DNA of 64,000 nt from a virus. The stretch lies in IMG/VR virus record IMGVR_UViG_3300045988_035487, positions 1-64,000 of that record. One strand, given 5' to 3'. Position 1 is the first letter of the stretch; the number at the start of each line of letters is the position of its first letter. Position numbers and translations under genes: made by a program. This document shows, piece after piece, positions 7,959-48,245 of the stretch. The notes beneath the pieces were generated by a model, which made no database searches, was not told the origin of the DNA, and saw only the letters and a list, made by a program, of their open reading frames with translations.

Positions 7959-8046
7959 GGAGAGTTGGGTGAGTGGCTTAAACCAGTCCCCTGCTAAGGG
8001 ACCGAACCTCAAAAGGGTTCCGCTGGTTCGAATCCAGCACTCTCCG
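7959..8046 (+). tRNA. tRNA-Ser(GCT), type II
   Basis: Acceptor GGAGAGT/ACTCTCC. Anticodon stem GTCCC/GGGAC with loop CTGCTAA. Long variable arm CGAACCTCAAAAGGGTTCCG. T arm GCTGG-TTCGAAT-CCAGC. Confidence 0.85.
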
Positions 8047-17379: not shown

Positions 17380-17462
17380 GCGGTTGTAGTGTAAAGGAGG
17401 GCACATCACTAATTTTAGTATGCGCACAAGTGATAGATTGGGTTCGATTCCCGACAGCCGCT
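17380..17462 (+). tRNA. tRNA-like gene with expanded (18-nt) anticodon loop; possible intron-containing tRNA
   Basis: Acceptor GCGGTTG/CAGCCGC. D arm GTGT-AAAGGAGG-GCAC. T arm TTGGG-TTCGATT-CCCGA. The anticodon stem ATCACT/AGTGAT encloses TAATTTTAGTATGCGCACA, so no canonical 7-nt loop can be assigned. Confidence 0.45.
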
Positions 17463-43816: not shown

Positions 43817-44596
43817 ATGCAAATAAGTATTGACCAACTCATGAATGGTAAGGCTACTAGAATAGGTAAGAGAGCATATTTACCAACTGCTGCCTATGTA
43901 GAGCCTTTTATTGAAAGAATGTCCAAGTTTACTAAAGACTTTATAGTTGAAGTAGAATTGCCTAAACAGGTCACTAGGACAGTCGATGGAGATGTTAATG
44001 CAGATGATATTACATATAATCGTGTATTGATTCAAGCTGTAATGCCAGAGAGTTGCAGCTTTGACAATCATGATGAAGTTATTGGCATGGTCTACGGACT
44101 AGATGTTCGTAAGCCAGTAGCCAAGATTTATAGAGGGGCACTTAACAGAGCATGTACAAATCTCTGTGTATTTGACCCAGAATTTCTCCAAATGCAGCCG
44201 GTTAATCCTGAAGAAGCCTTGAATTATAAAGCTGTAGAGCATTTATTAAGTCAGACTTCTGATATAAAGCTGATGTTGGAGAATCTTCATAATACTACAT
44301 GGAAGGCAGAAGATGACTTAGTAAGTCTAAATCTAGGCAAGTGGCAAAGAAATGCTATGCATATGGTTTATAATGTAGGTTATGGAGATGTCAAGATAGG
44401 AACAGACCTTGTTACTAAGGCGTATAGTTCTATGTTTGAGGACCCAGATTCTTCATATTATATTGGAGTGGGTAATGAGGTGGATATGTTTACTGTGTAC
44501 AATGCATTTACGCAGCTAATTAGTAATGACAAGGGTAAAGATTTGATGAATAGAGCAGAGAAGACTCTATTACTAAGAAACATATTAAACTTCTAA
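43817..44596 (+). CDS. hypothetical protein
   Basis: 259-aa ORF. Confidence 0.5.
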   Translation: MQISIDQLMNGKATRIGKRAYLPTAAYVEPFIERMSKFTKDFIVEVELPKQVTRTVDGDVNADDITYNRVLIQAVMPESCSFDNHDEVIGMVYGLDVRKPVAKIYRGALNRACTNLCVFDPEFLQMQPVNPEEALNYKAVEHLLSQTSDIKLMLENLHNTTWKAEDDLVSLNLGKWQRNAMHMVYNVGYGDVKIGTDLVTKAYSSMFEDPDSSYYIGVGNEVDMFTVYNAFTQLISNDKGKDLMNRAEKTLLLRNILNF

Positions 44597-44599
44597 TTA

Positions 44600-45739
44600 A
44601 TGTTAGTAATTAAGAGAGACAAAAAAGTAGAACCTTTCGACGTTAATAAGATTGATGCTGCAATTACTAAGGCATTTAACGCTGTTAACGAGCCAATTGA
44701 TTCTGATATTCTTCAGGATATTAAAGATGAGTTGTATGTTAACAATATAGTTTCAGTTGAGGAGCTTCAAGACCAGTTAGAGAAAGCTCTTATGGCATGT
44801 GATTATTATGATGTTGCCAAGGCATTCATCTTGTACAGGCGTAAAAGGGCAGAGAGCAGGGCTTTAAATGAAAAGAAACAATTCATTAAAGACTATGCTA
44901 AAGCCAAGAATGCCGCAACTGGTAGTAAATACGATGCTAATGCTAATGTTACCGAGAAGAACATTGTAACCTTAAATGGAGAATTGTTCAAAGGTGATGT
45001 TATTAAGGTAAATCGTGCAATTCTTACTGATAAAATCAGAGAGTTATATGGAGAGGAGCTAGCTAAGGAATATATCCGTATGCTGGAACAACATTTACTT
45101 TATAAGCATGATGAAACATCGATTATGCCCTACTGCGTGGCTATCACTATGTATCCCTTTCTATTGGAGGGGTTACAGCCAATTGGAGGTTTGTCTGCCA
45201 GACCCAAGAACCTGGATTCTTTCTGTGGCATGTTCGTTAATCTGGTATTTGCGATTAGTTCTCAATTTGCAGGTGCAGTAGCAACTGGAGAGTTTCTAAT
45301 GTACTTTGATTACTTTGCTCGTAAAGAGTGGGGTGATGATTACTGGAAACGTCCAGAGGAAATGGTTGACAAACACAGAAATATTGACAAGATGTTAGAG
45401 CAGAAGTTCCAGCAGATTGTATATTCAATCAATCAGCCAGCAGCTGCTCGTAACTTCCAATCAGTATTCTGGAATATCAGTTATTTTGATAAGAACTACT
45501 TTGAAGGTATCTTTGGAGAGTTCTATTTCCCAGACGGTACACAACCTCAATGGGAATCTCTTAGTTGGTTGCAGAAGAAATTTGCTAAATGGTTTAATGA
45601 GGAACGTACTAAGTGTATTTTGACATTCCCTTGGAATTTCGATGGGGAATTAAAACCTTTGTTAATTGACTTGGAACTCCTAGCATTCATAGTAATACTA
45701 GGACAACAGGGGGCAAGCAACTTCAAGTGTGCAGCCTGA
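44600..45739 (+). CDS. nrdD: anaerobic ribonucleoside-triphosphate reductase NrdD, N-terminal part (ATP-cone + first half)
   Basis: N-terminal ATP-cone (VIKRDKKVEPFDVNKIDAAITKA). The ORF ends in a stop, and the C-terminal half resumes at 46634. The last residues are probably insertion-encoded. Confidence 0.7.
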   Translation: MLVIKRDKKVEPFDVNKIDAAITKAFNAVNEPIDSDILQDIKDELYVNNIVSVEELQDQLEKALMACDYYDVAKAFILYRRKRAESRALNEKKQFIKDYAKAKNAATGSKYDANANVTEKNIVTLNGELFKGDVIKVNRAILTDKIRELYGEELAKEYIRMLEQHLLYKHDETSIMPYCVAITMYPFLLEGLQPIGGLSARPKNLDSFCGMFVNLVFAISSQFAGAVATGEFLMYFDYFARKEWGDDYWKRPEEMVDKHRNIDKMLEQKFQQIVYSINQPAAARNFQSVFWNISYFDKNYFEGIFGEFYFPDGTQPQWESLSWLQKKFAKWFNEERTKCILTFPWNFDGELKPLLIDLELLAFIVILGQQGASNFKCAA

Positions 45740-46633
45740 CAGACTAAATACAGAGGACTTTAATGCATGGTGTGTGAACATAATGGATTAAGGTGTGCGA
45801 TAGTCGGAACTGTATGGTAACATACAGAGGGGAATTGAAGCATTCCCCCGTTTATTAAGTATGTCCATTTGGATTAGTTTCTATCGGGAATAAGTTGTAC
45901 CTTTGTCTCATTAAGTGAAACAATTAACAACTTTATAACTATGGAAACTAATGACAGAATTTGTTGCATATGTGGGGCTAGTGTTGGTAACGCACTGGCA
46001 GAGTAAGTAAATTCAAAGGAGATGGACAGTATTACTGTAGAAAGCACTATTTACAAATGTACAGACATGGAGAGATTTCTCAATTCACTCAAAAGGACGC
46101 TAATGAGTGGAGAGATAACATCTGTGTATGTAGAGGAGTACATGGTGAGGTCACTGGTGAAGTGACATTCGATTTAGACAAGCGAGAGTTCTTGCAACAG
46201 TTTAAAATTTACATTAGTAGTCAAGGTTACGCAGTAACTAAGACTGATGGTAAAACTCGTCTAATTCATAAGATTCTGACTGAAACAGAAGGTTATGATG
46301 CTAAGACCGTAGTAGACCACATTAATGGAAACAGACTGGACAATAGAATGGAGAATCTTAGGGTAGTATCACAAGCAATTAACGTAGTAAACAAGCACTA
46401 CGGTAAAGTTGTGGGAGTTAGTTATCACTCTAATAGAAGGGATGGTAAGTACTGGAGGAGCTACATTAAGAAAGATGGTAAATCTACAATCGAATGGTTT
46501 GATACAGAAGAGGAAGCTATTAAGAATAGGTTACTAAGAGAGATAGAAGTCTATGGTAAGCTAGTTAGTAGTGAGAATAAGAAATACGAATACTTAATAA
46601 ATCACCCGTCTGCCGAGGGCGGGGTGTAACAGA
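45740..46633 (+). mobile_element. insertion splitting nrdD: about 320-nt structured leader plus HNH homing endonuclease ORF (group I intron or free-standing HEG)
   Basis: Lies between the two nrdD halves and contains an HNH ORF in a different frame. Phage nrd genes are often interrupted by group I introns or HEGs. Confidence 0.6.
46057..46629 (+). CDS. HNH homing endonuclease (HNH + AP2-like DNA-binding region)
   Basis: Motif DHINGNRLDNRMENLRVVSQAINVVNKHYGK. Located inside nrdD. Confidence 0.7.
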   Translation: MYRHGEISQFTQKDANEWRDNICVCRGVHGEVTGEVTFDLDKREFLQQFKIYISSQGYAVTKTDGKTRLIHKILTETEGYDAKTVVDHINGNRLDNRMENLRVVSQAINVVNKHYGKVVGVSYHSNRRDGKYWRSYIKKDGKSTIEWFDTEEEAIKNRLLREIEVYGKLVSSENKKYEYLINHPSAEGGV

Positions 46634-47671
46634 ATGGTCGAAACTGTGGCATTGCTTACTGACGGTGAAGACGTCAAGGATACTGAATGGGCAGATTACA
46701 CTGCTGAAATGTATAGTAAAGGACACTCGTTCTTTACTTATATGTCCGATAGTCCTGATTCCTTATCTTCCTGTTGCAGACTTCGTAATGAGGTTACTGA
46801 TAATCAATTCAGTTATTCTCTTGGAGCTGGTGGTATTGCTACTGGTAGTAAGTCAGTAATGACCTTAAATATCAATAGGTTAGTTCAGGATGCAGTTAAT
46901 AATGGATATGATATGATTGAGTATTTGCGTGAGAATGTGAAGAAAGTTCATAAGTTCCAAACAGCATATAATGAATTGCTTAAAGACTATTTAAAAGACG
47001 GGTTGCTTACTGTATATACAGCTGGATTCATTGATATGAAGAAGCAGTATTTGACTATAGGTGTTAATGGAGTTATTGAGGCTGCGGAGTTCTTAGGAAT
47101 CCCAGTTAATGATAATCCAACTTATAGAGAGTTTATGCAATCTATCCTTAAAACTATCAGTGATGAAAATCGTAAAGCGAGAACTAAGGAGTTAATGTTT
47201 AACACAGAATTTGTTCCAGCAGAGAACCTTGGGGTTAAACATGCTAATTGGGACAGGAAAGCAGGTTATGTAGTTCCTAGAGATTGCTATAATAGCTATT
47301 TCTATGCTGTTGAAGACACATCTCTTACCGTACTTGACAAGTTCAAATTACATGGCAAGGAATATGTACAATACTTAGACGGAGGTAGTGCATTGCATAT
47401 GAATCTCGATGAACATCTTAGTAAGGAACAGTATCGTAACTTGTTGAGAGTGGCAGCAGTCAATGGTACTAATTATTTCACATTTAATATTCCAAATACT
47501 ATTTGTAATGATTGTGGACATATTGATAAGAGGTATCTCAAGGAATGTCCAAAATGTGGGAGTAAGAACGTTGATTATGCTACTAGAGTTATTGGTTATT
47601 TGAAACGTATTAGTAACTTTAGCCAAGCAAGGCAAGAGGAAGCTAGTAGAAGATTTTATACTCATGCTTAA
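46634..47671 (+). CDS. nrdD: anaerobic ribonucleoside-triphosphate reductase NrdD, C-terminal part (glycyl-radical domain)
   Basis: SSCCRL motif, C-terminal Zn site CNDCGH...CPKCGS, and glycyl radical motif RVIGYL. Confidence 0.7.
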   Translation: MVETVALLTDGEDVKDTEWADYTAEMYSKGHSFFTYMSDSPDSLSSCCRLRNEVTDNQFSYSLGAGGIATGSKSVMTLNINRLVQDAVNNGYDMIEYLRENVKKVHKFQTAYNELLKDYLKDGLLTVYTAGFIDMKKQYLTIGVNGVIEAAEFLGIPVNDNPTYREFMQSILKTISDENRKARTKELMFNTEFVPAENLGVKHANWDRKAGYVVPRDCYNSYFYAVEDTSLTVLDKFKLHGKEYVQYLDGGSALHMNLDEHLSKEQYRNLLRVAAVNGTNYFTFNIPNTICNDCGHIDKRYLKECPKCGSKNVDYATRVIGYLKRISNFSQARQEEASRRFYTHA

Positions 47672-48245
47672 ATATGTAGGTTTCGATATAGTCTTCAGGG
47701 AAATTCCTGATGAGACTACACTAGCCATAAACATATCCAATTGTCCATGTCATTGTAAGGGCTGTCATAGCTCTTACTTGGCAGGAGACGTTGGGGAAGT
47801 CCTGACTATTACTAGAATAGAGAAACTTATTAATGAGAATAAGGGAATTACTGCCATTTGCTTTATGGGTGGCGATAACGACCCTAAGCTCATTAATCAC
47901 TATGCTGGATTAGTAAGGACGTTAACTACCACTAAAACGGCTGATAAGTTTACTATTCATAAGGAAATTAGGTTTCCCAAAGTAACCATTCCTGCCGAAA
48001 CAGAAATGGAATGGCAGCAAACAGTACCACTTGATATAAAGATTGGGTGGTATAGTGGTAGAGCTACATTGGCAGATGAAATTGATTTGTACAATTTCGA
48101 TTACATCAAGTTAGGACCTTACATAGAGGAATGTGGACCACTTGATAATCCAAATACCAATCAGAGATTATATAAAACGATAATGACTGATGACGGTCCT
48201 AAATTAAAGGATATTACCTTTAGATTTTGGAATAGAGAACTATGA
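47664..48245 (+). CDS. nrdG: anaerobic RNR activating protein NrdG (radical SAM)
   Basis: Radical SAM cluster motif CPCHCKGCHS. Adjacent to nrdD. Confidence 0.7.
   Translation: MLKYVGFDIVFREIPDETTLAINISNCPCHCKGCHSSYLAGDVGEVLTITRIEKLINENKGITAICFMGGDNDPKLINHYAGLVRTLTTTKTADKFTIHKEIRFPKVTIPAETEMEWQQTVPLDIKIGWYSGRATLADEIDLYNFDYIKLGPYIEECGPLDNPNTNQRLYKTIMTDDGPKLKDITFRFWNREL

Follow-up and report, generated by a model that had tools for sequence, protein, structure and literature searches.

Evidence that a mobile group I intron interrupts nrdD in an uncultivated phage of the human gut

Introduction

The nrdD gene, which codes for the large subunit of class III ribonucleotide reductase (RNR), was split more often than any other RNR gene in a survey from 2013 (PMC3653736), and it is fragmented in 95 of 104 genomes of the gut 'Jug' jumbo phages, where metatranscriptomes confirm the splicing of some introns (PMC12880540). 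In Aeromonas phage Aeh1, nrdA is split by mobE, and the reductase is encoded by genes in pieces (PMC3653736). For the nrdB intron of phages T4 and RB3, a published report describes I-TevIII, an HNH endonuclease whose gene is defective in T4 and intact in its relatives (PMC1865063). The nrdD gene of T4, whose intron is also known as sunY, is annotated as a two-piece join with the I-TevII gene inside. Here we describe a 1005-nt element that interrupts nrdD in a 64,000-nt stretch of viral DNA (positions 1 to 64,000 of IMG/VR record IMGVR_UViG_3300045988_035487; this whole stretch is referred to as the window), and that is very probably a mobile group I intron of an uncultivated phage of the human gut.

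A preliminary description of the locus, made from the sequence and its open reading frames (ORFs), had reported two nrdD halves separated by about 320 nt of structured non-coding sequence and an HNH ORF. It had considered either that a group I intron, as in T4 nrdD, restores one protein, or that the enzyme is made as two polypeptides, as with Aeh1 nrdA. Split phage nrdD is well documented, and the established picture of phage introns is unchanged by this locus. The GC content of the Jug phages is 27-30% against 37.6% in the window, and because of this difference the window probably comes from another phage group.

Results

The three ORFs of the preliminary description are present, and Pfam confirmed their content. 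ORF1 (44600-45739, 379 aa) carries the ATP-cone and the N-terminal part of Pfam NRDD, ORF2 (46634-47671, 345 aa) carries the C-terminal part of NRDD (221 bits), and the HNH ORF (46057-46629) lies between them; here and below, all window features are on the + strand. The HNH stop codon ends at 46629, so that 4 nt, and not 5 as first counted, separate it from the ATG at 46634. When positions 44400-47900 were compared with the GenBank phages by megablast, a single record was found, MT835470.1 (uncultured phage, human faeces), which is ∼98% identical and aligned in two pieces. In a base-level alignment with zero sliding ambiguity, MT835470.1 lacks exactly positions 45632-46636, and more than 20 IMG/VR alleles at 96-99% identity likewise lack exactly this segment. 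The splice sites are thereby set at 45631|45632 (5′) and 46636|46637 (3′). The element (45632..46636) starts with UGGAAUUUCGAU and ends with ...GUAACAGAAUG, its last base being the omega-G at 46636. Group I introns have two invariant features at their splice sites, a final U in exon 1 and a final G in the intron, and both are found here.

Exon 1 (44600..45631, aa 1-344, with its boundary taken from the intron-less allele L001) contains the ATP-cone and the N-terminal half of the class III RNR and ends in ...ACA TTC CCT (..TFP), with U as the final base. Exon 2 (46637..47671, aa 345-688) begins VETVALL... and contains the SSCCRL finger loop, the Cys4 site and the glycyl-radical motif RVIGYL. 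Joining 44600-45631 to 46637-47671 gives a 688-aa NrdD without stops, with the protein junction ...ERTKCILTFP|VETVALL... and the nucleotide junction ...ACAUUCCCU|GUCGAAAC; the L002-type intron-less allele reads ...ATTCTTACATTCCCT|GTTGAGACCATGG... at the insertion site. Exact excision therefore restores a host ORF of which intron-less alleles exist, and the alignment of the exon junction to intact NrdD, which had been proposed as a check, showed all 688 aa to be colinear with L001 and with more than 60 uninterrupted homologues. The insertion point falls between the codons for Pro344 and Val345, inside the conserved TFP|VET strand. The protein is of the Thermotoga type (best PDB matches 4COI/4U3E, E∼6e-77), and TFP|VET aligns with Thermotoga TFP|VLT. 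ORF1 reads through into the intron for its last 36 codons (WNFDGEL...KCAA), and the ATG with which ORF2 opens (46634) is formed by the final 3 nt of the intron. Hence the two ORFs are not clean, complete fragments of the enzyme. No second nrdD was found in the 64-kb window. An intein does not fit the locus, since the exon-1 frame meets a stop at 45737-45739 and the HNH ORF is in a different frame.

In a permissive scan of 45400-46900 (1.5 kb), positions 45601-45827 matched the entire model (1-253) of the Rfam family Intron_gpI (RF00028) at 49.3 bits (E=3.9e-11), far above chance expectation, so that the scan returned the intron core that the preliminary description had proposed to look for with Infernal. 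In the cmscan alignment P1 was placed so that the 5′ splice site would lie near 45610. This placement was rejected, since the intron-less allele sets the junction at 45631|45632. The cmscan P1 is ∼20 nt too far upstream, and as the same upstream offset was seen with the T4 sunY intron, P1 was rebuilt from the true junction. The resulting P1 hairpin (45625..45650) pairs exon AUUCCCU (45625-45631) with intron GGGGAAU (45644-45650). It is also found in the minimum free energy (MFE) fold, keeps 7 of 7 pairs in all copies of the intron (see below), and is closed by a U45631·G45644 wobble that is unchanged in all 8 copies. The internal guide sequence (45637-45650) combines this P1 strand with a P10 strand, UUUCGAU (45637..45643), which pairs with GUCGAAA at the start of exon 2 (46637-46643) over 7 of 7 positions; the single change seen in P10 is from G-C to G·U, in copy L088.

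The catalytic core (45656..45848) was delimited from the cmscan alignment, the MFE fold, pair counts and R1, a custom covariance model of P3-P9.1. It comprises P3 (45656-62 with 45750-56), P4 (45667-73 with 45707-15), P5 (45678-83 with 45698-703), a tentative P6 (45717-21 with 45727-32), P7 (45740-46 with 45801-06, a pseudoknot with bulged A45741), P8 (45757-73 with 45778-94), P9 (45810-16 with 45821-27, capped by a GUAA tetraloop) and P9.1 (45829-35 with 45842-48). The MFE fold, which uses no homology input, recovers P1, P3, P4, P5, P8, P9 and P9.1. There is no P2, and only AAAU lies between P7 and the 3′ strand of P3. In the absence of a P7.1/P7.2 insert at this place the element is not a canonical IA2 intron. 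Contrary to the first proposal, the structured RNA is not the ∼320-nt gap between the ORFs: the ribozyme core occupies 45632-45848 and shares sequence with the tail of ORF1. At the other end of the intron, a P9.2-like 3′-terminal hairpin (46605-11 with 46617-23) overlaps the last codons of the HNH gene and ends 3 nt before its stop codon (46627-46629), which is followed by 7 nt, CAGAAUG, up to the 3′ splice site, ending in the omega-G at 46636. Another register for this hairpin (253-276 pairing) was rejected, as it is broken in the variant clade, whereas the chosen register covaries. The P9.1 hairpin with the adjoining CGUUUAUUAA (45829-45858) was flagged as terminator-like. The resemblance is probably fortuitous, though such a structure could attenuate the transcription that reaches the HNH gene.

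By blastn, the intron matched none of 50,697 GenBank phage records, and further copies were found by pattern scans of IMG/VR. Seven more copies lie at the same nrdD site (site A): L082 and L083, with a core 99% identical to that of the window, and L085-L089, with a core 87% identical. The site-A alignment of the 8 copies covers the exon ends, the core and the 3′ tail. Paired cells made up 98.9% of it, against 41-51% when the partners were slid, and no helix was broken. Five compensatory pairs were counted, of which P9.2 contributes two and P3, P9 and P9.1 one apiece. The P9.2 hairpin shows in addition one U·G to C-G change, and its pairing is retained although the amino acids encoded by the HNH gene are altered. 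An 11-nt indel is restricted to the loop of P5. In a wider alignment (A3), which combines site A, a paralogue at a second site (site B, see below) and T4, 26 of 52 pairs are compensatory, and 97.1% of the cells are paired against 33-52% in the slid controls. A P3-P8 core with the P3/P7 pseudoknot and covariation is thus present; P7 is invariant, and its backing comes from homology. Scanned with model R1, the window yields a single copy (223 bits), without a further intron of the same family elsewhere in it. As R1 excludes only members of its own family, further sub-threshold introns of unrelated families could be hidden in the window.

The distribution of the element fits that of a mobile intron. 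None of 80 related IMG/VR nrdD loci carries the site-A insertion, and the nrdD genes that do contain the intron represent at least three backgrounds, with exons 77-97% and cores 87-99.6% identical to those of the window. Between the window and L083 the core is 99.6% identical and the flanking exons 77-78%; of 235 core positions, 1 differs from L083 and 3 differ from L082. The element is therefore more conserved than its host gene. The flanking exons of the window contain a recombinant tract. Exon 2 has 32 mismatches to MT835470.1, of which 28 are concentrated in the 81 nt next to the 3′ splice site; over this patch the window differs from each of its close relatives at 26-30 positions. The 3′ part of the tract (46637..46717) is 93.8% identical to L008-type nrdD and ∼65% identical to relatives that are otherwise 98% identical; outside the patch, L008 nrdD is only 82% identical to the window. 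A short 5′ counterpart (45620-45631) brings both parts together to ∼95 nt.

The tract was scored at 378 sites that distinguish L002-type from L008-type nrdD. Outside the tract the window carries the L002 state at 347 of 350 sites (175/178 upstream of -43 and 172/172 beyond +81). Inside it the L008 state prevails, at 24 of the 25 sites between +2 and +80 and also at the site at -12. Homing from a diverged donor, with co-conversion of the flanking exons, would be expected to leave such a pattern, which is skewed to the 3′ exon. Exon co-conversion has been reported for homing by I-HmuI in phages SPO1/SP82. The independent contig L082 has the same intron in the same 98% background with a different and shorter flanking tract, which argues that the co-conversion phenomenon is real. 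Presence/absence polymorphism, a conserved element and flanking co-conversion together make up a homing footprint.

The HNH ORF at 46057-46629 exists, as described before, but it is not a complete gene: it is a remnant of 190 aa that begins at an internal Met and forms the 3′ part of a gene for a homing endonuclease (HEG) that starts at an ATG at 45941 (45941..46629). A 1-nt deletion near 45992 (GGTAAC-GCACTGG, where one G of a GG dinucleotide is missing) leads to a stop at 46004-46006 and removes the first 39 aa, including a CxxC...CxxH motif. It is found only in the window copy (1 of 8); all 7 others have an intact 229-aa ORF with a start equivalent to 45941 (METNERICCICG...YYCRKHY..., with the CxxC...CxxH motif). 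Pfam HNH_3 scored 39.5 bits with the window remnant and 37.0 bits with the intact L082 protein (cutoff 24.8), and the HNH motif is present. Among solved structures the closest is that of I-HmuI, from Bacillus phage SPO1 (1U3E, E=3e-4), and relatives of the HEG protein in GenBank phages are at most 43% identical. No HEG paralogues were found elsewhere in the window. Homing-endonuclease genes have a known decay phase once the target is occupied, and the frameshift fits such a phase, with a sequencing error as the alternative.

A long hairpin is predicted at 45872..45951 (-26.4 kcal/mol, z=-2.8). It encloses the HEG start codon and pairs the start region (AUGGAAACUAA) with upstream UUAGUUUCUAU, and its stem persists in the other copies, where a single U-A pair has become U·G. 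By analogy with the intron endonucleases of T4, this structure may occlude initiation and limit translation of the HEG. A promoter scan was at chance level (13 found against 14.6 expected) and is uninformative on HEG expression.

Two further insertions were observed in the nrdD genes of relatives. At site B, after aa 538 (FVP|AEN), an insert of 961 nt is present in L037 (4615-5575) and also in L038-L041, L075, L048 and L088 (1652-1818). It belongs to the same ribozyme family, with a full-length R1 match of 112-115 bits (E∼1e-34), although Rfam failed to recognise it. It has a retargeted P1 (GUGCCU/GGGCAC), and the HNH protein that it encodes, of 232 aa, is a paralogue of the site-A HEG protein with 38% identity (E=9e-37). 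At site C, after aa 593 (DGG|SALH), an insert of ∼1058 nt is present in L030 (∼4780-5838) and also in L031-L033, L035, L048, L050 and L082. It has a 260-aa GIY-YIG ORF and, at its 3′ end, a weak Intron_gpI match (24 bits, E=1e-3), so that the ORF appears to sit upstream of the core. The combinations A+C (L082), A+B (L088) and B+C (L048) were seen, and most relatives carry none. Sites A, B and C are thus a segregating three-site polymorphism among phages with 85-99% identical nrdD. All three lie in conserved motifs, which are the usual homing targets. We think it likely, with less assurance than for the intron itself, that one lineage of intron and endonuclease colonised two nrdD motifs (TFP|VET and FVP|AEN), changing its guide (GGGGAAU to GGGCAC) and its nuclease while the core was kept, that an unrelated GIY-YIG intron took a third motif (DGG|SALH), and that the states none, A, B, C, A+B, A+C and B+C now segregate among these gut phages.

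Other atypical nrdD matches were noticed. In L051 (3001-5053), tblastn aligned nrdD as two segments that overlap and lie in different frames, one covering aa 1-229 (99.6%) and the other aa 158-688 (86.5%), which suggests a recombinant or frameshifted allele, or a mis-assembly. In GenBank, MT835492.1 (38271-41450), PV062637.1/OR395405.1 (80139-83875) and Lak phages (e.g. MK250024.1) gave nrdD matches in 2-3 pieces with kilobase gaps, and Desulfovibrio phage 7757 has an HNH homologue of the window HEG (80673-81098) inside the nrdD range. These gapped phage genes are probably more unannotated nrdD introns.

Immediately downstream of nrdD lies an nrdG-like activase gene (47664..48245; 4Fe-4S radical-SAM type, identified as an ORF with a weak Pfam Fer4_12 match). 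Its ATG at 47664 overlaps the final 8 nt of nrdD (47664-47671). The two genes form an operon, and the overlap suggests translational coupling of reductase and activase. Elsewhere, the window carries 22 tRNA genes between 549 and 24478 with ORFs between them; 20 were found at the gathering threshold, and those at 7959-8046 and 17380-17462 in the permissive scan.

Discussion

The reading that we favour is that positions 45632-46636 are a mobile group I intron, with the following course of events. After transcription, the RNA would fold into a compact ribozyme (P1, P3-P9.1), whose guide (45637-45650) would pair with both exons, in P1 with the end of exon 1 (including the U·G wobble) and in P10 with the beginning of exon 2. 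Attack by an external guanosine after U45631 would be followed by attack of exon 1 after G46636, and the ligated exons would give one mRNA for the 688-aa Thermotoga-type class III RNR. The 3′ peripheral region of the intron, from P9.1 to P9.2, carries the I-HmuI-like HNH gene. Its intact 229-aa product presumably nicks or cuts intron-less nrdD in a mixed infection, and repair would copy the intron together with flanking exon. The donor of the window copy would have been a diverged, L008-type nrdD, from which ∼81 nt of the 3′ exon and ∼12 nt of the 5′ exon would have been transferred along with the intron, and the HEG of this copy would later have been broken by the 1-nt deletion, unless the base was lost in sequencing. 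The boundaries, the fold with its conservation and covariation, the restored ORF, the presence/absence polymorphism and the recombinant tract are observed, whereas we infer the activity and target of the nuclease and the timing of the frameshift.

Several points weigh against this reading. The Intron_gpI score of 49.3 bits falls short of the gathering score of 50 by 0.7 bit, a whole-window Rfam scan at the gathering threshold reported tRNAs only, and a permissive scan of the 64 kb also dropped the intron at the speed filters. The site-A copies form two clades only, so that each compensatory pair among them is a single event, and A3, the wider alignment, is biased towards pairing because it was fitted to the model. 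P4, P6 and P7 are invariant among the site-A copies, A3 does not include P7, and P6 is tentative. Catalytic splicing is something that we infer from sequence and fold. As the HEG is frameshifted, the window copy may no longer be mobile. Finally, if the window is a metagenome assembly, a strain-chimeric path through the intron 'bubble' could mimic a co-conversion tract.

Three other explanations were weighed. The HNH gene might have split nrdD as mobE split Aeh1 nrdA, the halves being two separately translated polypeptides without RNA splicing, and this could account for the position of the ORF2 ATG just after the HNH stop codon and for the long open frames of both halves. Genes in pieces have no self-splicing element and a start of their own for each fragment, whereas here a complete ribozyme with covariation support lies between the halves. 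The ORF2 ATG is intronic, and the site-B intron ends in ...AGAAGG, so that this ATG is not conserved in the intron family. No Shine-Dalgarno is evident for ORF2, and the bases upstream of it are locked in the P9.2 hairpin. ORF1 would bear 36 unrelated intron-encoded residues, and the break would fall inside a conserved strand (TFP|VET, cf. Thermotoga TFP|VLT). We therefore regard the two-polypeptide alternative of the preliminary description as highly improbable, and its proposal of an intron that restores one protein is borne out by the core, the U|...G| boundary, the 688-aa ORF, P1 and P10. It is just as hard to credit that the element is a dead relic, i.e., an insertion of group I origin that has lost splicing and has left nrdD a pseudogene. 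The frameshifted HEG and the Rfam score just under the gathering score would agree with decay, but every helix is intact in a core that differs from L083 and L082 at so few positions, the exons are free of stops and frameshifts, and nrdD outside the tract is ∼99% identical to intact alleles. The partner gene nrdG is also intact, and as nrdG lies downstream in the operon and the window has no other copy of nrdD, this one is expected to work.

More weight, though still not much, is due to a partial artefact, in which the intron is real but the exon tract, the 1-nt HEG deletion or both come from chimeric assembly or a base-calling error. The relatives of the window are metagenome contigs, the deletion is of a single G of a GG in 1 of 8 copies, and no L008-type contig containing the intron was recovered. 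On the other hand, the independent L082 has the intron in a 98% background with its own, shorter tract, and the ends of the window tract are sharp and asymmetric, as co-conversion predicts. We consider such an artefact unlikely, and it would leave the main conclusion, that of a group I intron in nrdD, untouched.

For annotation, nrdD is best given as join(44600..45631, 46637..47671), with an intron feature and an HNH pseudogene; labelling two 'NrdD fragments' would wrongly imply a broken pathway. The locus also illustrates that a real phage group I intron can score just below the Rfam gathering score and vanish in a large search space, which means that intron counts from routine scans are underestimates. 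What is new here is an nrdD insertion site distinct from that of T4, in a Thermotoga-type NrdD. In addition, the footprint of co-conversion is very clean, the endonuclease gene is freshly broken, and a sister intron has been retargeted to another place in nrdD. Between them, the introns at sites A and B lend themselves to a comparison of how guide sequence and endonuclease specificity co-evolve. If the three-site interpretation is true, these phages provide a natural series for the joint retargeting of ribozyme and homing endonuclease, including, in the window, a copy with a just-inactivated nuclease.

When the locus is set beside described systems, Aeh1 nrdA/mobE resembles it in that an RNR gene is interrupted by an HNH-family endonuclease gene. 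Aeh1 differs by having no intron and two polypeptides, whereas the window has a full ribozyme and exon ends that fit splicing. With its I-TevIII, the T4/RB3 nrdB intron shares with the window an HNH endonuclease within a group I intron of a phage RNR gene, but its host gene is nrdB, the class Ia small subunit. The SPO1/SP82 DNA-polymerase intron with I-HmuI (an HNH nicking homing endonuclease, 1U3E) is likewise a phage group I intron carrying an HNH nuclease. It lies in another host gene, the similarity is weak (E=3e-4 over ∼58 residues), and the N-terminal CxxC...CxxH motif of the window HEG fails to align to I-HmuI.

The T4 nrdD intron lies in the same host gene family, and the insertion sites of T4 and the window were compared through Pfam profile coordinates. 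The T4 junction was derived by enumeration and set after nt 538 (...AYE|YEVN...), giving a 605-aa protein, since this reproduces what we take to be the NrdD sequence. A BLASTP comparison of T4 NrdD with the window NrdD gave no alignment, the two being too distant, and a HMMER search of the PDB with the window NrdD did not reach T4 NrdD. In Pfam NRDD the T4 site is at position ∼143 and that of the window at ∼207-214. T4 sunY has IA2-type P7.1/P7.2 (a 39-nt insert in the cmscan alignment), which the window intron lacks; its nuclease I-TevII is a GIY-YIG enzyme and that of the window is HNH; it scores 105 bits on Rfam Intron_gpI against 49.3 for the window; and the two introns have no DNA similarity. 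The early comparison with T4 nrdD accordingly does not extend to insertion site, intron subtype or nuclease family, but it holds for the layout. The two introns are of similar size (1033 nt in T4 and 1005 nt in the window), both have the core first and the endonuclease ORF in the 3′ peripheral region, the sequences of the P9 hairpin and of J8/7-P7 are similar, and the T4 sunY core is matched by the window-derived model R1 with 37.5 bits (E∼1e-9).

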